Source: Catajapyx aquilonaris
Taxonomy: Eukaryota
DNA length: 64,000 bases
Direction: 5' to 3'
Assembly (NCBI GenBank): GCA_000934665.2
Contig: KZ538513.1
Location: 1 to 64,000, forward strand
In this document: in pieces, positions 36,661 through 61,316 of the stretch
Layout: the number at the start of each line of letters is the position of its first letter
How positions within the stretch are numbered: position 1 is the stretch's first letter
Translations under genes and position numbers: made by a program
Notes under the pieces: generated by a model
Seen by the model: the letters and a program-made list of their open reading frames with translations, nothing else
The model's database searches: none
Told to the model about the DNA's origin: nothing

Positions 36661-39521
36661 AGGCCGGTACCCACGTAAAAGATTTCTCGCACACGAGGAG
36701 CCCGGATCCGAGAAACGAAGTAGAAAATTTGCATCTTTAATCCCCTTTCCGATGGACCAACAAAAAGTCTGTCTCGCTGGACAAGATTCCTTGCTCAAGA
36801 GGACTCGTGACCGAGAGACTTATATGTCGATTACCGGCCTTCTGGGTCATTGTAGATTTATAGGTTATTCACTTGATACTATAGCGAGTACTAGAGTGTA
36901 CAATGGACTTCATCCCCGGTGTACTGTCCCTCATAAGTGACTAACCCCAGTTCGTGTACGTAAGACATGTACATGAATAACCCCTGGGTGCAGAACTGAA
37001 CACCCGAGGGGGTAACCACGTAGTGGAACCGGTGTACACCGGGTATACACCGGGAACTGGATGTAGTACACATTTTTAGGGAGTGGTTACCCCCTTGAGT
37101 AGTACACCCCCCATAATTTCCAGCGCACAATATTTTCCCCCATTTGTACGTCCCTGGCCGCCTCCTCATGTGCATCCCATTCATTCCCCCCTCCAGCCAA
37201 TCCCAAACCCATTATCCTCACTCCGGGGCCCCAACGTGGCCAGTGGCCCCTGAGCGAGCGCCTCCGTGTATTTGGCAACACCGCCAACATCCATGCGGCG
37301 GAGAAGGAGTGTGATGATGGGGGGTGAGTGGTGCACAGTATGTGTGTCGTGTGCGAGCCTGGCAAGGACCGGACCTCGCTGGTGCTAGGACCAGGATTTA
37401 AAGAAAGGTACGGGCGCTTTGGGTTTGCCGTGATTATAATTCATGGGGTGTGGTTAGGTGGGTGGGTGGGTGGACAGCCGCCTTTTGCTGCAGTACACGC
37501 CCTGTGATCGTTACGTCAGCGGTGTTGCCACGTGGTGCACAATGCCACGTGAGCCCGTGCATGTGCTGTCTGTCGCCACATTTGGCAACCGCGCGTCATG
37601 TGCCGGCCTCTGATTGGCAGCCTTCCCGAAGCCTGCGGGCCATGTGCATTGGACCTCACCCTGTACTTTTTTTTCTTTTTTTTTCGGGGTGTGATTATTT
37701 GAGGGGGGGAGGCTTTTTGGGTGCGGGGGGGGGGTCGTGTCCTGGGATAGGTGTTGTTGGTGTGTGCAGTGGGGGGGGTGACTGTGCACTTTAGGTTGCA
37801 ACCAGGGGCGAGATTACGCCTTTTTTTATTTATTATTTTGACTCGGAGTGTGGTGGGTGGGGTTGAGGAGGCCAATGTGACCCGGGGGTGCCAAGCACCT
37901 TTTTTTGTGTGACAGGTGGTGATGGGTGACCCACGAGGTGGGGCCGGTACTGGATGGCACCGGTGCAATGTGGAAGCTTATGTAAGTATAGTGCAAAGAG
38001 GTGCACATGACTTGTGTCAAAATATAGTACTGCATGTTAAGTCATGTATGCACCAAGACATGAATGACTCACCAATGTACTACATACATTGTTGACTCAA
38101 AAATGGCATATTTTGAATCTCGGTGTAACTACGCCCGGACAATGGGCACCGAGTAGTTACACCGAGACTGAAGTCGTGCAAGAGGTTCAATCAATGATGC
38201 AACCGGTACGTACCACTGGTTGTATGTACCACCTGGTGTTACTCTTAAGGCTAACGTTCCTTGTTTCCAGGATATGGCGTGGTAATTGCGGATAACTCAG
38301 CATGTGTATCCATTGTGTTTTTATTCATGCATCAGGCCTGTTTCGCAAGTGATGCCCAGTGTTGCAGGTTCATTATTGCAAGTTGGTACATACCGTCGGA
38401 CTACGCTGACATGTGGCAGCCCGTTGCGTAACGGGGGGGTGTCAGAGGGTGGGGGGAAAGTGAAATGCACCGGTGAACTATTGATCAGTCTTACTTTGAA
38501 AGAAGGAAAAAGTTCAACTGTGTGTCACACCTTCAGCTGAATACATTGTGTCGTGCTCATGTTGAGTGACGTGCTGGCAGGTTGGACTACATTACAGGTT
38601 GGGGAGTGAGTGCAACGATGCCCAATTATTACGCAGCCGCGAAGAAGCGCTTGACATTGAACCACCGCAATGATAGCCAAAGCGACATTATCAAGTTACC
38701 AGCCGCATATGGGCTACCTTGTTAACTATTTGTATGCACGTAACTACATGTAACCCATGCATTTCAACTATTAAAGCTTATCATTAAATTGGTTAAATTT
38801 ACATTTTAAAATTTATTGCATCTTTAAATGTTACAGTATCAGCCACAAGCGCATCCAACCTAATATTAGCAATATTTGGTTGAATATAACATGCATACTA
38901 TTTTTTTTAAAGAAAAACTTAAAATACATTTTTAAAATGCTTCTACCTAATATTAGCAATATTTGGTTGAATGTAACATGCATATTTTCAATCATTTAAA
39001 AATATTAGCTACATGCAAAAAAAACACCTGCTGACAATATTTGGTTTAATGTGCATTATGTATAGCTAATATTTTCTTTAGGGTCAATATTTTCAAATTT
39101 TTGTGCATATCCGGCTGATGAGGGGCGTGGCCCATTGTTTTCAGGCGACGTGTCAATTTTCGCGAAATATTCGCGAAATCTTACACAATATGATGCAAAT
39201 TATTGCACGAGTGACAACAAATGACGTCATTTCAATCTGTATATATATTTTTTGTAGTATACGTACCACCCACTTTTTTAAAAAAAATTAGACACCCTGT
39301 ACTCTTGTATGCATATAGAACCGGTTGTATCCCCTGTGCTGAGTCATATTATATTTTTTTCATGATTTTTTTTCTTTCTTTCCCTTGTCAGACTTTTTCT
39401 GGCCCCGGATCGTATGGGGCGTGAGCAGCAGCGTCGTCCGGACTAGTTGTGCGCGCGCTGACCTCGCCCCGCCGCCAGCTCGCTTCGCTCTCCTACAAAG
39501 ACAAGCGACGCAAAAACAACA

Positions 39522-42500
39522 ATGAGCCTGGAGACGCTTCTGGAGGCCGCCCGGTACCTGGAATATCGAGCCCAGGCCAAAGCACGTGGTAAGTCAATGA
39601 CGCACATTGTAACGCACACACGTCATTTAGTGGGGAGGTACAAGTATAGATGTCCATATTTCCAACACTTGTTTTTTTTAAATATATTTCCAAGCGTGCA
39701 ATGCACGTGTGTATGTAACTGCGTATTTCGCTCTTTTTTTTTGTGCGCTTATCAAATGGTAGGTGCACGTGGTGTACTCGGGCTCACGTGTTTTGCGCCG
39801 TTACCTGTGGGGGGCCGGGGGTGTATTGATCAATTGCGATAAAGTACAGAGGCGTGAGAGGCACCGTACTTTGTGCACGGCCGCGCACGCCGGACCCCCT
39901 GGGCGGTGTTGCCATGGCTACCCCCCACGGAAAACCTGTACGTCCTACACGTGGCTGGGAGTCACACGACCACATGATGCATCGGATTGTCGGAAGACAG
40001 TGCATCATGTAGACTTAGCAGCCACGTGTAGCCATCACACTATACCGGTGAGGATAACAAATGTGGCCAAAATTAGGATATTTACATATTGGACCAATCA
40101 GGAAGACGGATTTGCCCACGAACGGGATTAGGAATTGTGACGTCATCAGCCACTTTCTCTGCCTATCATCGGCTTATAAATGTGGCGAAAATTAGGATAT
40201 TTGTTTAAATTTTAAATTTTAAATTTTTATATTTATACCCCATTGGGAGAATCGGCGGTCCATTAGGGGGGTGGAGTACCACCATTGGATGGGACCAGGG
40301 ATAGGGAAGGAAAGAGGCGGCTGTGGCCTATTATACGGAAACGATCCCGGAATTGTCCTGGGGGGACCGTATGCAAAAACCACATAAAACCACGGTCAGG
40401 GTTGCTGGCCCCGGGATTCGAACCCAGGACCTTCCGATTAGCAGGCGGGCTCCTTAACCACCACATCAACCTGCTTCGGTAAAATTAGGATATTTAAGTA
40501 GCGGACCAATCAGGAAGCTGGATTTGGCCACAGGAATTGTGACGTCGCATCACCGGATTTTGGACGTCACAGTCCACTTTTCGCTGCCTTTTATACCCAT
40601 CGGCTTATACGCAAAGGCATCGGATCAGTACGTCACAATAAAAGTGGACTGTGACGTCACAATTCCTGGCCCGCTCGTGGGCAAATTAGGCTTCCTGATT
40701 GGTCCCATACTTAATTACGCGAATTTTGGCATGATTTAACGCTGTTTTTGCTGCATTGTTGACCTCACAGTTTCGTTTCTAATCAAGGGGGTTATTCACT
40801 AAGGGTTCGTGTATACCTTCGTAGGTAGTTCGCAGGTAGTCCAGCCTGGACTACCCGGGTAGTTCGGTAGTCCATGCATAGACCTTAGAGCGTGGGTCTA
40901 AGGTCTAAGGTCTATGAGTCCATGTACGAAAAAAAAATGTGAGTGAATAACCCCTCGCTAAGGGTAGTCCGTGTATACATCTTCGTAGGTACAGTTGTAG
41001 TCCGAGTAGTCCAGCCTGGACTATCCAAGGTAGTCCGGGTAGTCCATGTACGAAAACAATGTAAGGGAATAACCCCTCGCTAAGGGTAGTCCGTGTATAC
41101 ACCTTAGGTAGTCCGGGTAGTCCAGCCTGGACTACCCAAGTAGTCCGGGTAGTCCCATGTACGAAAAAAATGTAAGTGAATAACCCCTCGCTAAGGGTAG
41201 TCCGTGCATACACCTTAGGTAGTCCGATGTTAGTCCGGGTAGTCCAGCCTGGCCTGGACTACCCAAATAGTCCGAGGGAGTCCAAGATAGTCCGGGTAAG
41301 TCCATATGCGAAAAAAATGTAAGTGAATAACCCCTCCCTAAGGGTAGTCCGTGTATACATCTTCGTATATAGTCCGGGTAGTCCGAGGTAGTCCGTGTAC
41401 AGTACGACGCAAAAAAAAAAAATGTCGCGCATTGTTTCGGACATCTGCTTATAAAAGGCAGCGAATTTCCACGTCACAAGAAGTGGAATGTGACATCAGA
41501 AATCCGGCGATGTGACGTCACAATTCCTTGCCCGCACGTGGGTCAAATCCTGCTTCCTGATTGGTTCGCTACTGAAATACCCTAATTTCTCCGGCTTTTT
41601 TGGGGGGGTCCATTGTTGACCTCATCGTGTGTGGGATGGGTTTTTTTTAAAGGTTCGGAGGGGGTGNNNNNNNNNNNNNNNNNNNNNNNNNNNNNNNNNN
41701 NNNNNNNNNNNNNNNNNNNNNNNNNNNNNNNNNNNNNNNNNNNNNNNNNNNNNNNNNNNNNNNNNNNNNNNNNNNNNNNNNNNNNNNNNNNNNNNNNNNN
41801 NNNNNNNNNNNNNNNNNNNNNNNNNNNNNNNNNNNNNNNNNNNNNNNNNNNNNNNNNNGGGGGGGGGGGGGGGGGGGGTTTGACCGCGTGGATGGGATGA
41901 CGTCACAGCCTCGTGGGCCCCGGCAGAGGGGAGCTGTTGCCATACTCATTGGCAAATGACGGCAGATGGCGTATGCCAGCAACAATGGCGCATTGTCGGG
42001 TGTGAATCACCGGATGTTGATGTCTATAAAAACTGGACCGGAGCAGTTGTATATAGGCTTGTGATTTCCTCCTTAGCCGTGCAATCCTCTTGAGGGCTGG
42101 GTGACGTCAAATTCTTTTCTGCAACCGACCGGATCTTGTGACGTCACTGTCGGTGCCAAATATTGAACTCGGGGCGTGGCCGATTTATTAATGGGGGGGG
42201 GGGNGGGGGGGGGACGATGCTCCACGTACCGCTCTAAAGCCAATGAGCTCGTTACAAGAGGGGGGCAAATAATGACCGTGATTCGAGTAGACTTTTTTTA
42301 CAATGACATAGAATGTTGTAAGTCTCAAAGTGGGTATAGTCACTCCTCACAAATGTGTACACTTGGATCACCATGAGTATATGTCTTATTTTCCGTTGCG
42401 AATAAAAGTCTCAAGAAAATGGTTTCCAAATCATGTAGACCTTGGCGGATACAGTGAACCTGCAGAACCGGAAGTGGGTGGTCACCGGAAGTTGATCATG

Positions 42501-45500
42501 GTGCCTTATTGGGGGGTCCGTTGAATCCGAATCCGAAAACCGTTTGTCGCCATCTCTTTCCGTTCGGGTCCTGATACCTGTCCACATATATTTTTGTTAA
42601 AAAAAATGAGAAAAACAGCGCTATTTTTTTGTGATTTTTGCGCAATTTTTTTTAAAGGACTTGTTGCGACAATTTTGGGGACGACGCAATTTGCTATGTG
42701 AAGGACATGAAGATTGAGCGCATGACCGGACCGTATAAAATAAACAGCGGAAATAAACATTATCTGGATGCATCTAGTGCTAGGATTACAGTGTGACGTC
42801 ACGGCTAAAATAAGCCAGGTCCAAGGTACTGTTAGGTAATTGTTTTTAGCTGAGGTAGTTTGGGAATGGCCCATGGTTCAGCACGTGCCATTCCATCGCC
42901 GGATGACCTATTGATATTTCGTGGGTCAAAGGTCAAAATCGGCAACAATGTGGGGAGGTGCTGCTGCTGCTGCCTATTTTTTTTTCGCCCCACTCCAGAC
43001 GGATCGACCGTGGGTGTGGGTATGGCGGTGACGTAGACCGTGACATCGGCCGTGACGTTGGCGCAAAAGGGGCCGGACCGACAACCACGTGAGTCGCGGT
43101 TTGTCTCCTACTCAAACCCACCCACTTTCACCCCCCTCCACCCATTTCACCCACCCACACTAAGGGAGGGGTGGGGGGCAACCTAGAACTCTAGGATGGC
43201 CTCCAAGTCTTTGCAGTCGTAGGGGACAGGCCGGCCAAGACGGGTCTTCGGAGGTGATGTGGTAGAAGTGTTTGTTCCGGGGTGGTGTTGCGGATGCCCA
43301 ATATGGGCGTGTTGGTGGAAACAGGAAGTGCAGGAGCTGGATGGACACCGCCGCCCAAGAAGAGGTGGATCCAGGGATACCTGCAATTAGGTGACCCGAA
43401 ATTTTGGAGCGTTGGCGTACCGTTCGAGTAGCGGTCCACTTGTTGCTATTTTAGTGGCGGCCACTGTACAGCCCGGAAAGAAAGAGCAACAAGTACGGCC
43501 GTGTCGGGTAACAGGGACTGTCTATACTCGATACCACTATTCTAATCAGAAATTTCGGATAACTGGGACTGTCGATACCACTATTCGGATCAGCAGTGTC
43601 GGAGAACAGGAACTCGTGATGCCACTTAGTATCAGCAATGTCGGATAACAGGGACTGTCGATACCACTAGTCGGATAACCGGGAGTCCGGGACTGTCGAT
43701 ACCACTATTCGGATCAGCAGGGTCGGAGAACAGGGACTCGCGATGCCACTATTAGTGTCAGCAATGTCGGATAACAGGGACTGTCGATACCACTAGTCGG
43801 ATCAGCAGGGTCGGAGAACAGGGACTCGCGATGCCACTATTAGTATCAGCAATGTCGGATAACAGTGACTGTCGATACCGCTATTCGGATCAGCAGAGTC
43901 GGAGAACAGGGATTCGCGATGCCACTATTAGTATCTGCAATGTCGGATAACAGGGACTGTCGATACCACGAGTCGGATAACCGGGAGTCCGGGACTCTCG
44001 ATGCCACTATTAGTATCAGCAATGTCGGATAACCGGGACTGTCGATACCAGTTGTCGGAGTACCGGGAGTCCGGGACTGTCGTGACCACTATTCGGTTCA
44101 GAAGGGTCGGATAACAGGTACTCTCGATGCTACTATTAGTATCAGCTATGTCGGATAACTGATAACAGGGACTCTCGATACAACTATTCATATAAGAAAT
44201 GTCGGATAACCGGGAGACTTGGGATTAGCAATGCCGGATAACCGGGAGACTTGTGATTGGTAATGTCGGATAACCGGTAGGGGCGATACCATAGCAATGT
44301 CGGATAACCGGTACTGCCGATACAACTATTCAGATCAGAAATGTTGGATAACCGAGAGACTATTCGGATTAGCGATGTCGGGATAACCCGGAGTGGCGGT
44401 GCCATGGCAATGTCGGATAACCGGGATTGTCGATGACGCTTATTCAGTTCAGATCAGAAATATCTGATATCACTATTTGGGATCGGCCATGCCGTTGACC
44501 TCCAACCGGTCACCTCCATTATAGGCGATTGTATAGATAAGTTACGGAAAAAAATTATTTTTTTTTAAAAAATGGGCAAGCTACCAAAATGCGGTCAGTT
44601 CCAGTTGAAAGTGACCCCAACGGAGGGTGTGACCCTTCCGATTTACGTCCGATAGTCACGGGCGATTACAATAGTAGGTCGATGGATTCTACGCAATGGG
44701 GGTGGTCGTCCCCCCCAACAGCGGGCCGCGATAAGCACGTGTTTATTCGAGTAAAAGGAGACCAGGCGTTGTGGGGAGTGGGGGAAAGAGAGGGGGGGGG
44801 GGTTTGTGACGCAACTGGAGGTCACGTCTACTACGTGCAACCCCACACGTGTGTGCACGTGGACTGATAATTATGTGCCGTGTTTTAAATGGAGGTAGCT
44901 CAAAAAGCTATTTCCGCTGTTTATAGTCGGGCAACGATTGTGTGTGGGGCGTGGCTTTAGCTTAACCACGCCCACGATGATTTCAGAATAGTTTGGTTGA
45001 CTATATGGTGCTTAAAAAGCGGGGAATTGTCACCATCGATTTACGCACCTGTTACGTCCTACATGTTACTACGGCCAATTTCGACGTACCGTTTGCTCCA
45101 GTTTGTCGTTCAAGGAAACGTTATTTATAAAAGTAAGGAAAAGGGGGGGGGTTACAATTGTGAGGTACTCGTTTTACGTTCCCCGGTCTGGCTGTATTAA
45201 AATAGTGCAAATAGAGGCCTTGGAACTAGTTTTTTTTTATTCCGACTGGGCCAACGGCATCAGTATATTTTCATGACGTCAAGCGGTTGAGTGATCTCTT
45301 ACAATACGCATTATGTGGTATTAGCATAATATGACCTTTTTGCGCAACTTTTTTTTATATAAAATACATCGAATGGGGAATGTCCCAATAATGGTGCAAA
45401 TAAAGTGCATTGTTTATGAAGGTCGTTTTTTTTTTTTCTCACTATCGAAGCGATATGACCTTGTCTGGTTTAGGGTTGTATATACCCGTTGTAATTTCCA

Positions 45501-48500
45501 TGCCACGTGGCTTTTGCAGATGGGGAATGAATAGGGGTGGCCCATTGGGTGTGGGGTGTCGTCAGAAACAATCGACCTTGGCCTCGCGACGGATGGCTTT
45601 GAACGGCTATTGTTCCAGCTCCCGATAGGGTATCGATAACCTGGCCATAAACAGTGAAGGGCAGACAGGTACTGTATCGCTCAAAAAAACATGCAAAATC
45701 GTCTGTTTTTGAGCGATATAGTACTGTAGTACACTGAAAGTGCTTCCTTCCCTATCCTTGACCCCATCCAATGGTGGTATTCCACCCCCCCTAATGGGCC
45801 GCCGATTCTCCCAATGGGGTATAAATAATATAAATGACCTGTTAATTATTAGGGGTAATGTACTCGGTGCTATTTTTTTTTTTTAATTGCTGACTGGGCG
45901 CACATGTTGGTCGACACGTAAACATTTCAGGGATGACGTCACGTCTGGCCTCACGTTTTTGTTACCGGCCTCGTGGTGCCATTATCGGAGCGTGTCGAAT
46001 ATTTTTTTTTAAACTGTGGCCTAACCCCGGTTTTAATTTAATTAAATAGGTTTGGTGGTCGAAATATTTTTGGGCGTTTGTTTACGGACTGGGGCTGCTG
46101 TGCGACCGTGCAGTTCTTGACCCTACCTCTTTTTTACCAGGGGAGGAGCCGAAGGACTACCACACCTTTGCGGGCTCGGTGGGCATCGATAGATCCACAC
46201 CCCCTCCGCCACCTCCTCCCCCTCCTCCTCCGCCGCCGCCCCCTCCGCCCCCGCCCCATTCCTCCACCTCCCACCCTCCCAACTCCATCTCCCAGCCCAT
46301 CCGCAGCATCAGCAGCGGCCACCCCCCGAACGGCACCACCNNNNNNNNNNNNNNNNNNNNNNNNNNNNNNNNNNNNNNNNNNNNNNNNGCCAGCCCCCTC
46401 GATCTACCACCCGCACACGCCGCCCACGCATCGCACGCACTACTCCTCCGCCACCTCATCCACCTCCTCGTCCCCTCCAGCCGTCCACCCCCAGCATCCA
46501 GAGGATGACCGCCCCTCCGCCTCCTCGTCGCCAGGGTACCACCACAACAACGGGGCCGCCTACCGTCACCTGGCCGTCAACCACGTGCTCAGGCATGAGG
46601 AGATGCACGAGGCCAAGAGGAGGAACGGGTCAGTGTTGAACCAGAACGACGGTACCGTCGTTGAATGAGCCGCTAGTTGACAATGAACTGATGATTAAAA
46701 CGGACAGCTCATTTAGTTCACGAGGTACACGACAGATGCGGCGCTGTAATAGCTGCGTCAGTTCATGAAGTACACCACAGATGGCTCTGTAACAGTTCAT
46801 GAAATATGCAACAGATGGAGCTGTGGCAGCTGCGTTAGTTCATCAAGTATACCACAGATAGCGCTGGCCATTTCTGTTAGTTCCTTAAGTACACCACAGA
46901 TGGAGCCAGCCCCCCCCCCCTCCATGGGGACGGCTGGGCTCTTAACAAGTCCACCACCACCCGGATTTGGCGCTGCAGTCGATCACTACAGTGTTGGACA
47001 TTAATCGCGTCATACCGCTAGCGACAGTTTCCGATGCGGAAGATGTGCGAGAAAGAAATGGTAGGCCTTGGGTGACGTCACGGGCTGGGGACAAGTCTGT
47101 TTCTCCTGCCCCCCTAGCCGGTGACGTCACCCAAGGCCTACCTCTTCTTACTCGCACTGTATCACTTCGATTTGCACGTCTTCCGCATCGAAAACTGTCT
47201 CTAGGAGTAAGACGCGATCAGCGCCCCGGACACTACCTATACGTTCTTATCTTATCGCCTGCCGGGGCGTTTTGCTTGAGGTGCTCACCTGAGAGCGCCA
47301 TGAGACCTTTCACGGAGCAATCATGTGGCGACCCTACCGGAAACTTTATAGGTACAAAAGGGAAGCGCTACATTGGGGGACCCAACATGGTCGCCGGCGG
47401 ACATGTTGGGCCCGCATGTAGCGCTTCCCTTTTGTAGCTATAAAGTTCAGCGTTAGTCCGGTAGGGTCGCCACATAATAGCTCCGTGAAAGGTCTCATGG
47501 CGCTCTCAGGTGAGCACCTCATGCAAAACGCCTCGGCAGGGGATAGGTGGGAGTGTCCAGACCTTAGTATTCTCTGACCATGGGCGCGATTAATGTCCAA
47601 CACTCTACAGTGCTGGACATATTAGCAGTCCCTAAATATTTACTTATGTACTGTACCAAATCGCATTCGGGCGGATGACTTCTGAACTGTTCTGAACCTA
47701 CCTAAACCGTCAATTCCCATTTAAGTGCCAGTTTTCAGATTCGCCTACCATCCACCCGAATGTGATGGTGGGCGTATATGCGGGGTTGAATGTGAAGTGA
47801 CGATTTAGGTAGGTTCAGAACGGTTCAGAAGTCGTCCGCCCGAATACGATTAGGTACAGTGCGCCACATACGGGGATGCGGAGACTCGTTAAGCGCATGC
47901 AAAAGGAGAGGGAGTTGCGGAGGAATGCGTACCACAGATAGCTGTAAAAGCTGTGCTAGGACATGAAGCACAGATGGCGTCGTAACAGTATTAGTTCCTG
48001 AAGTAGGCTACAGATCTGTCAGACGTAAGAAGACCGTAACTCAAAAACGTTACGGTCTTCTTACGTCTGACGGCGGAGTGGTCCTGGCCAGTTCCTTTAG
48101 TACTCACAGATGGCGCTGGCCGTTTCTGTTACTTTCCGAAGTGCACCATAGATGGAGCTGTAACAAGCGTTAGTTCATGAAGTATTCCACAGATGGCGCT
48201 GGCCATTTCTGTTAGGTCCTTCAGTATAGCGCAGATGGCTCTGCCGTCAGCTTGCAAATACGGTACTGTAATGCAACAATGCCCGTATTTTCTCGCAGGG
48301 CCGGCACCAGGGAGGTCCACAACAAGCTGGAGAAGAACCGGAGGGCACATCTCAAGGAGTGCTTCGAGACCCTCAAGAAGCAGCTGCCCGCCCTGGAGGA
48401 CAAGAAGACCTCCAACCTCAGCATCCTCCGGAGCGCCCTCAGATACATCCAGGTAGTTGTTCGCTCTAGCATGAGGTCAAGCAACCTAAACAGCACAATA

Positions 48501-51500
48501 AATATTTCGGATACGTAGTACATAACAAACCCTTTTGTTGCATATGTCGCTGTTGGCCAAGGTTGGTCTGATAAATTTAGATTAACAAACCGTGTGTCGA
48601 AATTGCCTGAGGCGCCACCCAATGGGGCCAATAGCCCACAATGTACACAAGTGCACGCACGGCCTTGGTATAACTTTTTACACGTGTACGGCGTAACTTT
48701 TTTTAAACAAAATATTTCGCAATATTCTGGATACGCCACTCTTCCCCCACATTCTCTATCGATCGAGACGACGCAAAACGACCGGGCGGGGGGGGGGGGN
48801 NNNNNNNNNNNNCAGGTCAACGTCAAACAGTGTTGCCAATATTGCAAAAAAAATCGCGAAATTATTTTTTTTGAACGAACGAACAATTTGCACAACTGAA
48901 CTTACTGGCTATGCGCCAAATTTTGCATTTTTTTGCGTTGCCCCTGAATAGAGGACAGGATAGTTTGCAAATAGCTCGTAGCTTTTTTGCATACTGGCGC
49001 CGGCGCCTCTTTTTCGCATTTTTTTGGTTTGTTTTGGAAACTACGGCCTTGGAAGCAGGCTTTTTTGGGCTGAATTTTTTGGGTGGCCCACCCCATAACC
49101 AGCAGGAATTATTGCATGAACGGACATCGATCCGCGAAATTTTTTGGGCGAAAAATTTGGCAACATGCGCGCGCAGATTTTTTTTTTTGCAGGGGGGGAA
49201 AAACACGTGGTATGAGGGGGTTTTAAGCCACGTGGGCGTTGGCTGGATGGCTTATATAAGTTGGGAGAGCTGGATTTTAAATTTGGGTTATGCACGTGTC
49301 GGCTCAGAAACGCAGAAGTCTGGCCGCAGCGTGGAATACATTGCGGTGAATTTTTATTAAAGAAATTTTGTTGTTGAAATTTTATACACTATATACAGTA
49401 TAATAGCCTATATAATTAATTAATTAATTAATACCCCATTTGGGAATATCGGCGCTCCGTTAGAGGGGTGGAGTACCACCATTGGATGGGGCCAAGGATA
49501 GGGAAGGAATTAGGCGGCTGTTGCCTATTATACGGAAACAACCCCGGAATTTATTATCCTGGGGGGGACCGTGGAAAACCACGGTCAGGGAAGCCGGCCG
49601 CGGGATTCGAACCCAGATTAGCAGCGTCGGGCTCCTTAACCACTACACCGACCTGCTTCGGTATATATATATACTTAATGCAAAACGATGCCGATGCTAC
49701 ACGATTTTAATTAATAAATTTTTTCCCTGATTAACAAGTCTTGCGGCTAGTGTTTCTTGGCACGGTAGCTGCGGAGAGGCTGGGAGTCCGTGAATGGGAT
49801 GGTTTGGCAAATCTCAAAGAGTAGGAGAAGGCTGATTGTTGCCTGCGCTTGAAGGAAGCGCAATTTGCAGGGCTTGACAGGAGGGGTTTATTTCTGGTCG
49901 GCGGGTGCAGTCGGTTTTGGCCGGATGTGTCACGGCAAAGCTGGAGCAACCTTGGAAGGACACACAGTTTTTTTGGGGGGGAGTGTGTCGCTTTTTCTTT
50001 CATCATTCGGTGCGCTCGGTGTACGGAGAGTATGGAAAGTACTAGTCAATAATGAGTTACGCAGCTGCTCTGTGATGAAGCCGTAATTTAAGAGTTGATG
50101 CAAACTGCAGCTGGAGTCACATTAATATTAATGCTACTATGCTAATGAATCTTGATGCATGCGAGAAAATATATTCACTGTGGTCTCTCGGGCAGTAGAA
50201 AATAATTAATTTTCTCAGCAGTTTCATTGCCTTGATATTTCCAGTCGACATGTACAGCTCCGGCGGAAGTTTTTTGATTGAAACCGAGCACCTGACCCTT
50301 GGGGAATTTTTGGCAGCATCTGCACATTTAGAGCCGGCATAATTGGCCAGTATGCCAATGAAAATTTCACAATCCTTCCGGGAGCCCCCTGTATTTTGGC
50401 AGCCGGCGACACTTAAGCTCTCGCTAGGTGGTAATTTTGGGACATGCCTCGAGAAGAAGAAAACAAGTGGAGCATGCGTTTGGGGATTATGCTTGCAAGG
50501 GTTTTTTCACCTCTTTGAAACGGAGAAGGTGGCAAACTTGAAATGACCTTGACCTAGCAGATTTTTTTTGTTTGGAAGTGGCCAAAATATTCTTTGGGCA
50601 TTCGCTTGACATTGAATTTCACTAGTTGGCCTTGCAGCATACATGGGATCAATCAGCGAGGGAAATGTACTGCCATAACATGTACTCAATTACGTAACAA
50701 CCATGGAAAGTGAAGAAAAAAAAATTAATTGCCCTGCCTTGGATTTGAAGGTTCACATGTATTTTGAGGCTCGTCTATTTTTTGTTTTATAATAGAAAGA
50801 GAGAGAGAGACTGAAGAGGGCATTTTATAAGTGACCTTTTGTAGGGAGCTTGGCCGGACTTTGGACAAGGTCAGCTAGTTTTTGGTTGGGAGTAGTTTTC
50901 AAAAGTGGGTTGGGTAGAAACCGTGGCGGAGAGATAACTTGATTTAGCTGGATGTACGAGTTTGTTGACACTCGGTGGTTGCGACTTAGACGGTCGCAGA
51001 TTTTAACGGTGGAGAAAACAGAGCATCATAGTTTACGAATGCTTTCACCTGCTTTCATGGCACATTTGCTGTCACCACCGTAACGCTCGTGACTTGGTGT
51101 ACAAAATATTCATACTATGATTCCGTTTGACGTACTGTTGAATGATTAAATGTGTTGCTTTTCAGTTACTCAAACGCAGGGAAAGGGAGATGGAGCACGA
51201 GATGGAGAGACTGGCCCGTGAAAAGATATCGTCGCAGCAACGTTTGGTGTCGTTGAAGAAAGAGCTGTCTTCCCAGTGGGACCATGTGGACTTCTCAGCG
51301 CTTCTTCCAGAACCCACCGGTTTTGTACTTGAACGAGGTGGACGGAACCCAAGCGGGCAAGACCACGACTCGAATTCGACCACAACTGCAGATGGTTAGT
51401 TACACAAATGAGCAACCAGGTGCGGTGATATTAAATCATGCTTCGTGTTCAGAGGGTGCTGTGGGGAGCGACATGGAGGACCTTCGCGAGACTTCTCCTC

Positions 51501-52952
51501 GTCCGGCACCTCCGCACACACCGTCGCACCTCAAGTCTCCTCGTGCCATTCGAGGTGCCAAGTCCCATACCCTCCCGAGAGGAAGTGGGACACCCTCGCC
51601 GTTACATCTCCGCACGGGACTGGGAGGGGGTCTTCCAACAGTGAGCAGTTCGGATGATTCCTGGGGCGGCTTCTCGCAGCAGTCGCCACCGCAGGAGGGG
51701 AAGGCATCACCTGCAGTGATCAAAATGGAGGAAGACGAGGTTGCCACCATTAACACGCTTCCGGCTCACTTGCAGATACCAGCTCAGGTAGCACCGGTTC
51801 GTTCAGGCGTGTGAGCCGTATTTACATGGTTTTGATTTACAGATGGTGGCACATCCGGGGCTTCCTCCCACGACACTGGTGAGCACACCGATACAAGTGC
51901 TGGCCCATCCAACAACAGTGCGAATGGTAGCAGCTCCCGACCCAGGGTCACCATCGCAGCAGCCTCTAGCCCTCACCGTACATGCGGCTGCCAACTGCAC
52001 CAGAGGGCTGGTGACCTCGACTGGAGGACCAAGAATGGCTGCGATGCAGGTTACGAAGCAGCAGCCGGGCAGCGTCACCTACCTGAGCGAAGTACCTCTG
52101 ACAAGTCCGGTGCTGATAGCCACGGGGTTGGATCAGAGTCAGCACTCGGGAGGAGGGCACCAAGCAATCCTGGTGGCTGGGAAGAGTCTGGCGACACCAA
52201 AGGTCACCAAGGGCGGGGGCGCAGGGTCCGGCCCAGGGGCAGGCGGGTTGGTCGGGCGGTCAGTGCCATCCTCGCCCATTGCATTCCCGGCTGGTATGGC
52301 CGTTCCGAATGGTTTGCTGGCGGCTACGGGACCCATCAGTTTCGCAAAGGCTGGGACGGGCCAGCAGGAACACTGCATCATTACCTCAGGCGGCACGATG
52401 TCGTCGAAGCCGTCTGCGGATGGTCTAGTCCCGGCCACAGTCACAGCAACAATGGGCATCCCAACCCTCACGACGCATCTGGCCACGGCTGGTGAGCTCG
52501 GCAGATTATCCTTCTGAAACGGTTGCTAAACGAGTGTTGCTTCCAGGCATAACACATGTGATGGCTCCCCTGAACTGCCAAGGAGGGCTGACCACCTCCC
52601 TGACCCCGCTGGTGGCCCCTATGGCCATGATGTCGCAGGCCAACCACGTTGCTCACATACTCACCACACCACACCTCGGAGGAAAGGTCAGTCGCTCTTA
52701 AGCCGCACCGTTCCGCCGCAATAACACGGGTTTCCACAGGTGGTGACCTCCCCGGCCATGGGCCAGCTGCCCATAGTGAGCGCCCAGTACCTCCGCCTTC
52801 CCCCGAGGCAGCTAGTGAAGCCGGTCGTCGTCGTCACCACAACAACGGCCGCTCCTCTTCCCCCTGCTCCCGCCCCTCCCTCTCAGTCAGCCCCTAGTCC
52901 TTCCCCTAGCCAAGCCGGATATACAATCAAGACCGAACCAGGCTCGCAGTGA
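39522..52952 (+). CDS. MNT: Max-binding protein Mnt (SID + bHLH-Zip repressor)
   Basis: Exon 1 MSLETLLEAARYLE (Sin3-interaction domain) at 39522-39588. Further exons: 46141-46628 (Pro-rich, contains an N gap), 48299-48451 (GAGTREVHNKLEKNRRAHLKECFETLK bHLH), 51166-51394 (zipper), 51453-51787, 51843-52491, 52547-52686 and 52740-52952. A non-coding exon probably ends at ~37407. Confidence 0.95.
39583..40028. promoter_or_regulatory. CACGTG E-box cluster
   Basis: Six CACGTG at 39583, 39704, 39766, 39785, 39948 and 40023. Confidence 0.65.
40203..40480 (-). mobile_element. tRNA-derived SINE, type A, full length
   Basis: Head CCGAAGCAGG...GGTCCTGGGTTCGAATCCC on the minus strand and an AT-rich tail, with a 15-bp TSD AAAATTAGGATATTT (40188-40202 and 40481-40495). 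Confidence 0.85.
40787..41400. repeat. Complex tandem repeat with ~110-150 bp unit
   Basis: GAATAACCCCTC(G/C)CTAAGGGTAGTCCGTG recurs at ~40945, 41067, 41178 and 41325, with GTAGTCC subrepeats. Confidence 0.8.
43294..43390 (+). CDS. MNT: Candidate alternative first coding exon of Mnt (MPNMGVLVETGSAGAGWTPPPKKRWIQGYLQL)
   Basis: ATG-initiated 97-nt frame ending G|GTGACC in phase 1. This matches the phase of the SID exon, so it joins in frame to exon 46141. Confidence 0.6.
43502..44460. repeat. Minisatellite with ~44-bp monomer and alternating A/B variants
   Basis: TCGGATAACAGGGACTGTCGATACCACTATTCGGATCAGCAGGG alternates with TCGGAGAACAGGGACTCGCGATGCCACTATTAGTATCAGCAATG and decays toward 44460. 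Confidence 0.9.
45745..45835 (+). mobile_element. SINE type A, 3' fragment
   Basis: CCCTATCC...CCAATGGTGGTATTCCACCCCCCTAATGG...CTCCCAATGGGGTATAAAT matches the 3' end of the 40203-40480 copy. Confidence 0.75.
46989..47605. mobile_element. Tc1/mariner-type MITE with nested inverted repeats
   Basis: Same TIR as 12166-12321, TA-flanked. Contains an internal hairpin at ~47061-47140 and a long inverted repeat at ~47265-47533. Confidence 0.8.
47650..47860. mobile_element. Palindromic MITE
   Basis: ACTGTACC...ATTCGGGCGGATGACTTCTGAAC...CTGAACCTACCTAAA is inverted at the right end. Confidence 0.75.
49432..49661 (-). mobile_element. tRNA-derived SINE, type A
   Basis: Colinear with 40245-40480 along its length. 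Confidence 0.8.
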
Positions 52953-55878: not shown

Positions 55879-57209
55879 GGCTGAATCGGCCCGATGAAGG
55901 GAAAGAAGAGACCTTCAGAACTTCAGAATCTTTTCAGAGAGAGAGGCCCACCAAATGGAACACGACGATCCAAAAGGCTTCTTGGAAACAGGCAGATCTG
56001 AACCCACCCCACCCACACCTGGAAATTGACCAAATTGACCCAGAATGAAAACTGTTGGTGCTCCTGCGAGAATTGCGGCTTATTATTGGCCCGATTGTGA
56101 TCACGTGACTAACCAGTGGTGCCAACAGGAGCTGTTAAAAAAAGTGACCAATCAAATGATCGAATTGGCACTAATGACGCAATTTTCAGCCAATAGGAGC
56201 AAGCGGCGAAGAAGACGAAGACGAAGGAGTATATTTAGAACGCACCCGCACTTTCAACTAAATAAGTTTAACAAAATATAATCACGCCCGCTCATATATT
56301 TAAATGTACTGCTAATTTAAATAATGCATGTTGTTAACTAATTACGAGAAATGAGCAAAGAATTTATTATAACTTGTAGCTCTCGTAGCTAATAGCTAGT
56401 AAAGAAGCAGCTTTCACCTGCCATATGCACCAACTGGAGGCGAATTTTAATTTGTAATTCATAATCGATATAAATATGAATTATCTTGTTTTAATTGACC
56501 TATTAAAATTAGCTGAAAATTATCTCACAAACATGCTTCTTTGAATAAGCAGATTGGAAAATAAGCCGTGATTGACCAAACCGCTATGCTTCTTGCGACC
56601 CATGAAATTCAGCCCCCAAAAAATCCGGTCAAAAAAAAAAAAAATCGTAGAAAAAAAAAAGATGGCGAATTGTTAAGATGGCGGCCAAAAAGTTCGTTTG
56701 GAGCGTGAAATGCGCCGCAAATTTAAATCCGATGGACTCGGAAAGGATCAGTGTCCGCACATGAAGTGTTGGGACACCTGAAGCCCCAAAACAACAGGGA
56801 TTTTTTTTTCTTTTTTTTGAAATCTGGATTTAAAATAATTAGAACACTAAAGTGTACGTGTCAAAAAAAAAAGAACAATTTTTTGAGAAGAAGTGACTTT
56901 CTTGGGGGGGGGTCACTTTTGTGCCATGTGAATCCGGCGGATTTCGAATTTTACAACAAAACCTAGTGCAATTATTTGGAGTGATAAAAAAAAAGTTCAG
57001 TTCCTAGACATTTCTTTTTCTTTTGGAGGAAATTTTCCTCAAAGTTTGGTTCTCAAGATCTCAACTTGTGATTTTTTTTAAAAACATATTATGGGGTAAG
57101 ATGGTGTTCATACTAGTGTAGCCGCATGTCGCATTAGTCGCAAGTGGACGTACTAATATCATATGTTTTCAGATAAGTACGACTAACTGCGCAGCTACTT
57201 CGCATCGAC

Positions 57210-59595
57210 ATGGCTTCAGCTCGTCAGCCGCAGCCGGAGACAGCTTCGTCTCCTCCTCCGTCACTTACATCTTCGGCTCCCTCCGTGCCGCCTGCTCCGA
57301 CTCCCTTAGCAGCCGCCCAGCCGCCTCTTCCGCCTTCATGGACAGACCTGTGCGATCGTCATGCACGCAGCTCAGCCTCCGAGTTCGCCCAGTCCTTCAG
57401 AACGTACGTGTCGGAGAACCACGTCGGTTCCGCACCCTTATCGCATCGGGACTTCGTACGCCGCTTCGTGGAGGTATTCTCGGAGCACTTCGAGTGTGAG
57501 ATCAACCGCAGTGAGGTCAACGGAGGCGGAGGGATTAGAGGAAGGAAGGACGACTACTCGGACTACTCCGACCATGAAGCTGAAGCCCCGTCGCCTAGAG
57601 CGCTACACAAGCCGTTCTTTAGGCATGAATTTTTGGTCTTGCAATTACAAATTAACAGGCTCCATTTTTTGAGGAATGGCAGAGCGAATCAAGAGAAACA
57701 TTTTTTGTGCAAATACACATGATTAGGTCAGAAAACGAGGGTTCGTCTTGCTTCATACGAACATGTATGGTTAGCACCCATAGTAATACCATAGTAACCT
57801 ATATTTAGACGTGTGTGCGTGACATGTCGCAAAACAATCAACTGTTGAAGTAGAATGGTCACCATGGTGGTAACTAAGATTTGGACGTGTTTGAAAGACG
57901 AGTCACAATAATGTTTCGTTCGTGTCACTCTATCAGTCTTTTAAAAAATGGGTGCTTATTTCACACACACGGTGTATTAGACGAATTTGCTTAACCTTTC
58001 AGGCGGTTGAGCTTTAAGGGTCTCCGGAAAGGGAAGGGATTCTTCCACAAGCAGCATTCAGACGAGGTCGAACTCTCGTCGCATCACCACCACCACCACC
58101 ATGGCGAAGGGTCGAAGAAGCATCATCACTCGAAAGGAAAACTGTCCAAGATTGTGGTGGAATGCAGGAAGGAAGGGATCGTCAACTACTTGAGCGGAGA
58201 CAAGATTGAAGGGACGCACAAGTGGGAGAAGTGCAGGCTGGCACTTGTCAAGACTGTCGGGGGATACATGCTTGAGTTTTACTCGCCACCAAAGGTGAGT
58301 CGGATCTGCTCATTGATTCTTAGGCCACAACTGTCCATATACACGTATAAAAGGACATGATTAGCGTTACGTTTTCAATCCACAGGCGGTGAAACCAAAG
58401 AGCGGCGTATTCTGCTTCCTGATAACTGAAGCTCGTGAGACGACGGCTCTGGAAATGCCTGACCATGAAAACACGTTTGTGCTGAAGGCGGAGAACAGCA
58501 TGGAGTATGTGATTGAGGCCCACGATGCGGATGACATGCGGTCGTGGCTTGCCACTGTCAAGTACTGCATGCGCGCACCTGGAGCAGCAAGTGGGCTCTC
58601 GGAAGGGCGGGGCAGGGACGGAGCAGGAGCCGGGTACAGAGAGGAAGGGGTGGAGAATCCACCAGAGCTGCCGCCTAGAGGTGGAGCAGCTACGTCCGGG
58701 GCAGCCGCGGTCAACGGATTCCATTCGCTCAGGTCGGCCAGCAGCAATGGGCTTGACTTTTGTGCGCAGGGTGGCGATCCAGAAGGAGGACCCGACGGAG
58801 ACGGTAATTGTCAATTGCGGATTACGATTATGGGGAAATGTACCATTGCTATGATTTCAGCTGCGGACGGTGGGGTCGACCTGTACTCGTCGCTTCGGGA
58901 GTACCCGTGGTTCCATGGGACTCTGAGCAGGTCGGACGCTGCCCAGCTGGTGCTGCAGGAGGGGCCCGATGGCCACGGAGTCTTCTTAGTCCGGCAAAGT
59001 GAGACTCGGAAAGGAGAGTTTGTCCTGACGTTCAACTTCCAGGGGAAGGCCAAGGTACGCACTGAAAATGACGTACATATGATTATTACTCATCATATGT
59101 CTTCCAGCACCTCCGCATGACCCTGAACCCTGAAGGCCAGTGCCGCGTCCAGCACCTGTGGTTCCAGACCATATTCGACATGCTGGAACACTTCCGGGTA
59201 CACCCCATCCCTCTTGAATCCGGTGGGACATCAGACGTCACACTGACTGATTACGTGGTGTCCATACAACCCAGGGGCGGACCATCCAGTTCTAGCCCAG
59301 CCCACGGAGAGAGACGACCTCCAATGCCGCCAGACCTTAGAGAGGTCAGCACCCAGTAGACGTCTTAAGTATTTAATTTGTTTTCGTTTTTATTATTTTA
59401 CGACCTGATTTCTCCACCTGTAGTACACGTTTGGTCATGCCTCAAATATTTAATGCTGCGGTACTAATTAGCTGCCGTCCTTAGGTGATGACCCACGGCG
59501 GCTCCGTCCGGACACGGACTGAGTCCATGGAGCGGCTTCAAAGCAGCGGCGCATCGGTCGGAAGAGCGGTGGAAAACACCTACAGCTTCGTATGA
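57210..59595 (+). CDS. SH2B: SH2B adaptor protein (Lnk): Phe-zipper, PH, SH2
   Basis: [20 protein letters not shown] (Phe-zip), [11 protein letters not shown] and [15 protein letters not shown] (PH), [10 protein letters not shown]...[27 protein letters not shown] (SH2), C-terminal AVENTYSFV. Exons 57210-57622, 58003-58293, 58386-58804, 58861-59053, 59109-59345 and 59485-59595. Confidence 0.95.
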
Positions 59596-60693
59596 GTCTC
59601 GAAATAAGTCTTCTGATTCTACTTCTTTGCGGTGAATAACCCCATAAAGTCCAGTGACAGTTGTGAGTGACTCCCTTTTTTTAAAAACCCACCCCAGTGA
59701 CTGTGATTTTTTAGTTTGTGCCACCTTTTTTTTGTGCCGTTCGACATGCGGCGATATTGCGAATAACTATTTATATATTTATGTTTACATGCAGCTGTGC
59801 TCCTTTTTTTTTTTTGCCTGTTTCCCCAATCAATGTTCCTGCAATTATTTTGTTTTGCTCTGCGTGAAAGCAAAATGTGTAATTCATGTGGGGGGCAATG
59901 TTGCAATTGCAACCCATTGTAATCTACCGAGAAAGAAAAAAAAAAATTCTAACTATTTAATAAGCAGGATTTCCTGGCCAAATGTCGCTATTTTTTAAAA
60001 TTAGCTGCTAATTAATAGCTCTCAATGCGGCTATAGTGTACGACCCGGCCAATCCTGGCGTTAAGTTAGAAAACCTTAATTAGCGAATTAGTGAGGGGGG
60101 GAAAGGTTGCCATAATAGTTTCGTCCAAACTCGAAATTGTTGTGACATGTGCCGTTTATTGTCACGACGTCAGTGCCACATTAAGAGGCCAAAAATGCAA
60201 TCCCCGCCTTTTAAATCTATAGGTAATCAATCTTCAGATCCTGTTTTTTTTTTGTATCGTTATTTATTGACTCATTTGTAGACCCCCGATGATAATTGTC
60301 TGTCGTGAAAATCCAGTTGAGTGTTGTCACAATTGCGGTTAATTTGTCCGAAAAGAAACATGGTGCTTTTTTTTAAATGTAGGGCATCAGTCATGGTTCA
60401 ATAAATGCAGCATTTGCAAACAATTAATTAATTAGTTAATTAGTTGGTCGCTTCAACTTAAATTTTGAACAACGCGCCCGTTTGTTGACTAGAACAAATA
60501 TGGCCGGCATTGGTTTGACTATAACAAACATGGCTGCCATTCTGCAATCTAGATCAAAGATGGCTGCTTTTTTTCCACTCGCAATACGGATCAAAGATGG
60601 CGGCGGGGTATTACATCATCCTTGCCCTGAAGTTGTCCAATTTCAGATTTTTTTGGGGGACATATTTTTTTTGTCCCGTTTCCTTGGGTGCCC

Positions 60694-61316
60694 ATGGCTT
60701 CCCCTCAGCCCCCGGCGTCCCTCCCCGGGGCGGCAGCCTCCACGGTGAAGATAGCCCCGGGGGCCATAGTGTGCAACGAGTGCGAGCTGGTCGGGGACAT
60801 CACCATAGGACCACGCACCGTCATCCATCCCAAGGCGAGGATAGTGGCCGAAGCAGGTCCGATTGTGATGGGGGAGAACAACCTGGTGGAGGAGCAGGCG
60901 CAGATACTGCACCTCAAGGCGTCCGGTGCAGCGGAGGAAGTCATGACCATCGGGTGCAACAACGTGTTTGAGGTACGGCTGAGTACGGAACATGCAAGTG
61001 GTGGTTAAATATTGGGACGCTTTAATTACAGGTTGGGTGTGTGTGCGAGGCGGCTAAGATCGGGGACCACAATGTGCTGGAGGCGAAGAGCCGCGTGGGT
61101 CCCACCACTCGGTTGAGCAACGGCTGCGTGATCGGAGCAGCGTGCGAGATGACCCCGGCGGAGACTCTCCCGGAGAACACAGTTGTGTACGGGGCCGGTT
61201 GCAAGCGCAGGGTGCAAGGGGAACGGCCTGCGCCTCAGACCCTGCAGCTGGATTTCCTCACGAAGATCCTCCCCAACTACCACCACCTTAAGAAGCCAAC
61301 GAAGACCAAGGCGTAA
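60694..61316 (+). CDS. DCTN6: Dynactin subunit 6 (p27)
   Basis: [10 protein letters not shown]...[35 protein letters not shown]...[17 protein letters not shown]. Exons 60694-60972 and 61032-61316. Confidence 0.95.

Follow-up and report, generated by a model that had tools for sequence, protein, structure and literature searches.

Mnt and its candidate first coding exons

The window analysed here, meaning the whole stretch of 64,000 nucleotides taken from contig KZ538513.1 of Catajapyx aquilonaris (positions 1 to 64,000), contains on its + strand a gene for Mnt, the main Mad-type antagonist of Myc, whose repression is attributed to its Sin3-interaction domain (SID). In flies Mnt is, to our knowledge, the only Mad-type antagonist of Myc. 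The gene very probably has two alternative first coding exons that are both spliced to a common exon 2, namely exon 1a, which encodes the SID, and exon 1b, which encodes a head composed of an MGVLV start, a linker and a conserved end motif.

The canonical first coding exon, exon 1a (39522..39588), begins with the ATG at 39522, encodes MSLETLLEAARYLEYRAQAKAR and ends with the first base of a Gly codon, the extra G at 39588, in front of the donor GTG/GTAAGT (GTAAGT at 39589) and hence in phase 1. Its translation (MSLETLLEAARYLEY...) contains a Sin3-interaction helix of the LLEAA type, and residues 1-24/25 of the SID isoforms of Ischnura (X2) and Cryptotermes were placed by tblastn on this exon at 39522. 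The acceptor of exon 2 (46141..46628) reads ttttttaccag/GG GAG GAG CCG AAG, which sets the exon start at 46141 and intron 1 at 39589-46140; the exon continues as (G)EEPKDYHTF and then a stretch of prolines, and is left in phase 2 at the donor GTCAGT (at 46629). This canonical splice can be regarded as fixed, since the Mnt proteins of chelicerates (tick, scorpion, horseshoe crab, spider) show the same exon-1/exon-2 join, AKAR-GE(E/I)P.DY.TF, as the window. The opening residues of exon 2, GE.P.DY.(T)F (46141-46170), are kept in ticks, spiders and horseshoe crabs, occur in a weaker form in a mollusc and a brachiopod, and follow both alternative heads.

Exon 2 is followed by the basic helix-loop-helix (bHLH) exon (48299..48452; (G)AGTREVHNKLEKNRRAHLKECFETLKKQLPALEDKKTSNLSILRSALRYIQ), the leucine-zipper exon (51166..51394; LLKRREREMEHEMERLAREKISSQQRLVSLKKELSSQWDHVDF...; donor GTTAGT at 51395) and several C-terminal coding exons (51453..52952), the last of these recognised from open reading frames (ORFs), an acceptor at 51452 and weak tblastn matches to the C-termini of Ischnura and Cryptotermes. 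The order of bHLH and leucine zipper is that of an Mnt-type protein. Of 1,140 candidates obtained with the bHLH exon as query, 1,098 proteins reached E <= 1e-5; the best 120 matches were 83-90% identical throughout, those with a name being nearly all MNT, and the Pfam model HLH (PF00010) is present in the orthologues. The zipper exon shares 67% identity with Cryptotermes Mnt and includes the stretch KKELSSQWDH.DF, which is common to insects but is not found in ticks. An in-frame ATG lies 20 nt 5' of the bHLH exon (48279-48298) and would place MPVFSR before (R)AGTREVH; a third, headless Mnt isoform starting there is conceivable, and the X3 isoforms of tick and horseshoe-crab Mnt begin at the equivalent point, just before the bHLH.

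Exon 1b (43294..43390) is located on the same strand between the SID exon (39588) and exon 2 (46141), 3.7 kb further into intron 1. It comprises 32 codons and one base, ends in phase 1 and is followed by the donor TAG/GTGACC at 43391: positions 43294-43389 translate to MPNMGVLVETGSAGAGWTPPPKKRWIQGYLQL, the G at 43390 comes next, and the GT occupies 43391-43392. Its frame is opened by the ATG at 43294, since an in-frame TGA at 43255-43257 closes the frame upstream. This first ATG has C at -3 and adds three codons; the second ATG, at 43303, is flanked by A at -3 and G at +4, pairs in the alignment with the initial Met of the orthologous isoforms described below, and opens the conserved block MGVLV (43303..43317). 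The conserved end motif (43342..43389) reads W-T-PPP-KKR-W-I-Q-G-Y-L-Q-L in the window, against an orthologue consensus of W-(M/I)-PPPP-KKK-W-I-R-H-Y-L-L. Exons 1a and 1b are both left in phase 1 after a G, and each completes the same GGG (Gly) codon, after which EEPKDYHTF follows. A prediction made earlier from the nucleotide sequence of this stretch (hereafter the original prediction) had proposed a 32-codon ATG frame at 43294-43390 that ends at a phase-1 GT and, sharing its phase with the SID exon, joins exon 2 in frame. The frame is present exactly as described, and both the shared phase and the in-frame join were confirmed from the splice sequences.

Homologous heads in insect Mnt isoforms

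Stop-free ATG frames that run to a phase-1 GT are common in intron 1, where 168 were counted, 70 of them with at least 20 and 47 with at least 30 codons. The bare frame at 43294 is therefore not more than would be met by chance, and it is conservation that decides. Homologs were sought starting from a small alignment of a tick-like Mnt (a transcript-derived record) and the exon pieces of the window, which returned damselfly and termite Mnt among its best 120 matches; sister isoforms of such proteins were then found by opening ten of the 90%-identity clusters. The MNT-like isoforms X1 and X3 of Ischnura elegans (XP_046385029.1, XP_046385031.1) begin with MGVLVVDTDAHDAWIPPPPKKKWIRHYLS and continue with GEIPKDYKGF... 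as does the SID-bearing X2, and PNF28949.1 of Cryptotermes secundus begins with MVMFVDQQAGGVRIMPPPKKKWIRHYFL and continues like its SID-bearing sisters. The alternative head is likewise carried by isoforms X1, X2 and X4 of Cloeon dipterum (XP_065351610.1 and others), X3 having a SID-like head, and by isoforms X4 and X5 of Diuraphis noxia (XP_015376026.1, XP_015376027.1), X2 carrying the SID. The alternative and the SID isoforms of the same insect gene diverge exactly at the exon-1/exon-2 junction. A regular expression for the SID (L-L-E/Q-A-A core) gave no match in five alternative isoforms, and the alternative head of the window has no such core either.

In BLASTP comparisons the peptide of the window matched the N-terminus of Ischnura Mnt X1 with an E-value of 7e-07 (16/28 identical residues) and the alternative isoform of Cryptotermes with an E-value of 1e-06. 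In both alignments residue 4 of the window peptide (the second Met) is paired with residue 1 of the isoform, and the alignment extends to the splice point. In the reverse direction, tblastn of Ischnura X1 placed its N-terminus only at 43303-43422 within the window. As a control for circularity a profile was built from 31 orthologous rows, the row of the window being excluded, and run against all 3,277 six-frame ORFs of the window. A single ORF was matched (43258-43428; E-value 1e-06, 26.4 bits), the next best having an E-value of 20.

An exon profile constructed from three heads was searched over 1,835,955,588 representative proteins and yielded 35 representatives at E <= 0.001 (2 at E <= 1e-10), all of which carry the core P-KK-W---Y. 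Four of the 35 are long bHLH proteins that begin with the MGVL block. Nine of the 35 carry a name; they include Cloeon dipterum, Diuraphis noxia, Menopon gallinae (KAL0266604.1), Habropoda laboriosa (KOC71138.1), Ladona fulva and Trichogramma brassicae (a fused gene model), and two matches are titled only 'hypothetical protein'. Many others are short ORFs on genomic contigs that read on as ...HYLLGE, which is the read-through of a phase-1 G/GTGAG donor, and in those genomes the exon thus presumably ends at the same point. The position of exon 1b within the gene, its ATG-G-V-L-(V/L) start, its core motif and its phase-1 donor all agree with this arthropod Mnt alternative head exon.

These protein, cluster and profile searches bear out two expectations of the original prediction, namely that a PPKK(R/K)W exon would be conserved, which it is in insect Mnt isoforms, and that the exon replaces the SID, which is supported by homologous N-termini in insects, encoded by genes from which a SID isoform is made as well. 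The insect isoform records are the closest known counterparts of the window's exon 1b. The heads of the insect isoforms and of the window are alike in the MGVL start, in the W-x-PPPKKKWIRHYL end, in the join to a GE.P.DY or (S/E)E.P exon and in having a SID-bearing sister. They differ in that the window has R, Q, G and Q in place of K, R, H and L and three extra codons before MGVL and, unlike the insect isoforms, is without annotation of its alternative head in the collections searched. Exon 1b is a divergent member of an exon family that is present in insect gene models and, as far as the literature searches reach, is undiscussed in print.

Conservation within the head was tabulated for 38 sequences (the window, Ischnura, Cryptotermes and the 35 profile matches) anchored on the lysines. 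Two blocks stand out, the MGVL(V/L) start and the end W-x-PPPKK(K/R)WI(R/Q)(H/G)YL. The proline immediately before the lysines (P(-1)), both lysines K and K, W and Y are invariant (38/38), and all five are kept in the window. The third K (37/38), I (36), R (35), H (37), L (34) and the next L (31) are near-invariant, and a Trp and a proline run are usually present upstream of the lysines. The M-G-V-L-(V/L) start block was found upstream of the motif and in the same frame in 34 of the 38 sequences; the linker between the blocks measures 10-20 residues in the window, odonates, mayfly, termite, aphid and louse, and 45-85 in bee-like sequences.

The head was also compared with known signals. An N-myristoylation signal would call for Gly-2 and, at position 6, a residue that is small or bears a hydroxyl group; the head does have the Gly, but its sixth residue in MGVLV(E/V/D) is V, L or E, and this candidate was rejected. 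Readings as an eh1/Groucho, LIR, PIP-box, HCF-1 or MAPK-docking motif, judged by eye from the familiar consensus patterns, did not fit the conserved residues of the 38 sequences. A sequence search of the PDB with the peptide returned a noise match at an E-value of 0.23 and nothing better, and the ESM Atlas returned nothing usable for residues 1-45 of Ischnura X1 (best feature score 0.80; structure template modelling score <= 0.38).

Weighing the evidence and the putative role of the head

Several observations weigh against the interpretation of exon 1b as a working alternative first exon. That it has a transcription start of its own and is used in this species is something we infer. Its donor, GTGACC, is without G at +5, as is the donor of the bHLH exon (GTAGTT). 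The window's copy of the motif is the most divergent of the 38 sequences: it is the only one with R in place of the third K and with G in place of H, and it also has Q for R (found in 3/38) and Q for L. The motif is part of the profile by which the 35 matches were chosen, so that the invariance is in part a product of construction, and most of the insect isoforms with the alternative head are automated gene models. On the full isoforms Pfam reports HLH alone and no family for the head, and an AlphaFold2 model of the 33-residue head from 32 aligned sequences reached a mean predicted local distance difference test score of 64.2, with a short helix of low confidence at residues 27-32. A word-based protein search with the 57-residue stop-to-stop ORF gave two candidates, none at E <= 10; this search was blank because the alternative isoforms sit in 90% clusters behind SID-bearing representatives.

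That the exon is a functionless intronic frame which ends by luck at a GT of the right phase is hardly credible. Frames of its length abound in intron 1 (47 of at least 30 codons among the 168), the first protein search was blank, and the nearby E-boxes and cAMP response element (CRE) are not specific to the spot. Yet the homology between the peptide and the N-terminal ends of insect Mnt isoforms extends from start to start and from junction to junction, and it is the sole one of the 3,277 ORFs of the window that the orthologue-only profile matches. A decaying relic, i.e., an exon that is functional in insects and has fallen into disuse in this lineage, where the SID isoform alone would be made, seems improbable but deserves somewhat more credit. 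It would account for the outlier status of the window copy at four near-invariant positions and for a donor GTGACC in place of the GTGAG implied by the 'GE' read-through of most orthologous fragments. Against decay stand the intact 32-codon frame and the retention of both blocks, the five invariant residues, the phase and the ATG, and greater divergence is to be expected in a lineage far from insects; the outlier status would fit a lineage outside insects.

As an alternative first exon in use, exon 1b (43294/43303-43390) would put the MGVLV start and, beyond a short variable linker, the motif W-x-PPPKK(K/R)WI(R/Q)(H/G)YL in the place of the SID, and the two Mnt proteins would have GE.P.DY.TF, the bHLH, the zipper and the C-terminus in common. 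Because this body of the protein is unchanged, the 1b form is expected to dimerise and to bind E-boxes; pairing with Max (or Mlx) and E-box binding would be kept, and the helix that binds PAH2 of Sin3 would be absent. The sections consulted of a review on MNT (PMC8465425) state that the SID of MNT binds Sin3 PAH2, that mammalian MNT becomes an activator once the SID is deleted and that SID mutants no longer block MYC-dependent transformation. Because of this effect of SID deletion (PMC8465425, same sections), Mnt 1b would most likely act at the same sites without Sin3-dependent repression, and such a SID-less form would counter the repression exerted by the SID form, either by competition or by reversing it.

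The engineered SID-deleted mammalian MNT is comparable to the 1b form in being an Mnt body without the Sin3-binding helix; it is artificial and has nothing in the place of the SID, whereas 1b has a conserved module there. Within the MXD family the closest parallel in print is the vertebrate pair Mxi1-0/Mxi1. Mxi1-0 begins with an alternative first exon, driven by a promoter of its own, instead of exon 1, and both forms have exons 2-6, which serve the binding of Max and of DNA; the two heads confer different behaviour, Mxi1-0 being mostly cytoplasmic and Mxi1 nuclear (PMC4350643, in the sections consulted). Mxi1 is a different gene, with exon 0 about 18 kb upstream of exon 1, whereas exon 1b lies inside intron 1; Sin3 binding is reportedly kept by Mxi1-0, unlike the expectation for 1b, and no likeness in sequence is claimed. 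Predicted Mnt forms of tick and horseshoe crab (X3) and of shark and caecilian (X2/X3) also have alternative starts that remove the SID and keep the bHLH-zipper, but their heads are unrelated and none has PPPKKKW (regular expression over 289 proteins).

With regard to the function of the motif itself, a docking site for a conserved partner is, on balance, the reading to which we incline, because its aromatic, histidine and basic residues would appear to have remained near-invariant over a very long time. The AlphaFold2 and Pfam results offer nothing structural for or against a docking motif, which is thus argued from conservation alone. A nuclear import signal, replacing one lost with exon 1a, comes second and at a clear distance in our estimate. 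Signals of the class with a basic triplet and an aromatic residue bind the minor site of importin alpha, and P-P-K-K-K/R-W is indeed basic and flanked by prolines. However, import signals usually tolerate an exchange of K and R and need no invariant W...Y with I, R, H and L amid and behind them; KKRW/KKKW misfits the strict K-K/R-x-K/R consensus, its fourth place being Trp; the conserved MGVL start is left unexplained; and the basic region of the bHLH is present in both isoforms. A plain nuclear localisation signal, which the original prediction had kept as its alternative, is accordingly disfavoured by the conserved W, I, R/Q, H, Y and L after the lysines together with the MGVL start, even though the alternative head of Mxi1-0 alters localisation (PMC4350643, sections consulted).

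Far less probable still is the specific partner that had been proposed for the motif, according to which PPKK(R/K)W binds TBL1/TBLR1 (Ebi) in the manner of the NCoR/SMRT interaction domain (NID) of MeCP2, and the choice of first exon swaps Sin3-HDAC for NCoR/SMRT-HDAC3. The proposal draws on a likeness in that both are short, proline-flanked basic clusters (the cluster of MeCP2 lying in a disordered region that recruits a corepressor), with four of six residues of PIKKRK matched in the window once the motif is aligned as in the original prediction, and the Mnt motif is clearly under selection. In MeCP2, according to the sections consulted of PMC6295171, four neighbouring residues of the NID, R306 among them, make the contact with the WD40 domain of TBL1X/TBL1XR1, and TBL1XR1 is no longer pulled down by the R306C mutant. 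The position that matches R306 is nevertheless Lys in 37 of the 38 Mnt sequences and Arg in the window only, i.e., the key arginine is not conserved, and the invariant W and Y as well as the I-R-H and L-L of the Mnt motif are without counterpart in PIKKRK. The proposed corepressor switch through TBL1/TBLR1 is thus not supported.

A more general version, in which the choice of first exon in pancrustacean Mnt is an old cofactor switch and the MGVL...PPPKKKWIRHYL head recruits a partner other than Sin3 or opposes repression, is a tentative proposal that we consider possible but doubtful. If it were true, one gene for a Max partner would yield two E-box factors, a repressor and one with a different, possibly activating, mode of action, and the dense E-boxes in the 5' region of Mnt would make the choice of first exon responsive to Myc/Max/Mnt itself. 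A SID-less form of Mnt that keeps a 15-residue motif almost unchanged in insects of six orders and in this more distant arthropod would point to a second, selected mode of action, and a motif so short and sharply defined could make its partner directly identifiable. The gene model of Mnt in this window would in turn need a second first exon. No description of the MGVL...PPPKKKWIRHYL head was found in the literature searched, the strings KKKWIRHY, PPKKKWI and KKRWIQGY occurring in 0 papers, and the consulted sections of two Mnt reviews (PMC8465425, PMC3177325) contain no mention of an alternative head. Drosophila splice forms of dMnt that lack the SID or the zipper were reportedly described by Loo et al. 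in 2005.

The upstream stretch and other features of the window

The stretch in front of exon 1b (42794..43293, + strand) is a putative promoter or 5' untranslated region. Its GC content is raised (0.55-0.60 over 42800-43399, compared with about 0.42-0.48 upstream), it is not repeated elsewhere in the window, and it includes a CRE at 42794 (TGACGTCA) and E-boxes (CACGTG) at 42882 and 43086. The elements on which a promoter had been predicted are therefore in place; what does not stand is their specificity. CACGTG occurs in 25 copies in the window where 12.9 are expected, 16 of them within 37529-46587 and 12 in intron 1, and TGACGTCA occurs in 16 copies where 0.94 are expected, 12 of them within 39222-47129 and several in repeated or inverted-repeat elements. 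Since both motifs are common across the 5' part of the gene, the three named sites do not mark the spot of exon 1b. A transcription start within 42794-43293 is plausible, and one located upstream of 43196 would put two mini upstream ORFs (ATG 43196 and ATG 43257) before the ATG of exon 1b.

Six CACGTG E-boxes are crowded into 446 bp (39583-40028), from the last codons and the donor of the SID exon into intron 1, where about 0.17 copies would be expected at the rate of the window (25 in 64 kb). This cluster may mark control of Mnt itself by Myc/Max/Mnt or by Mondo/Mlx. With regard to the copies of TGACGTCA, those at 40138, 40652 and 41513 have common flanks (a repeated element), those at 42102/42139 form a direct repeat and those at 47073/47122 an inverted repeat.

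Other repeats were noted in the introns of Mnt. A tandem array with a 44-bp unit (43528-44215; 15.9 copies, 69% matches) begins ~140 bp 3' of exon 1b, and short arrays continue to 44277. Three copies of a short interspersed element lie at about 40223-40484, 45681-45886 and 49432-49710 and were seen as similar ORFs reading ...PHWENRR.IRGVEYHHWMG.(G/R)IGKE... The assembly has gaps (runs of N) at 41667-41858, 42204, 46341-46388 and 48800-48812; the third, a gap of 48 N, lies inside exon 2 of Mnt, and the apparent reading frame is shifted across it. A search of the whole window with Rfam gave 0 matches. Downstream of Mnt, judged by eye from the ORF list, + strand ORFs at about 57177-59359 have the look of an SH2B-type adaptor with PH and SH2 regions, and + strand ORFs at 60631-61316 that of a dynactin p27-like hexapeptide-repeat protein.

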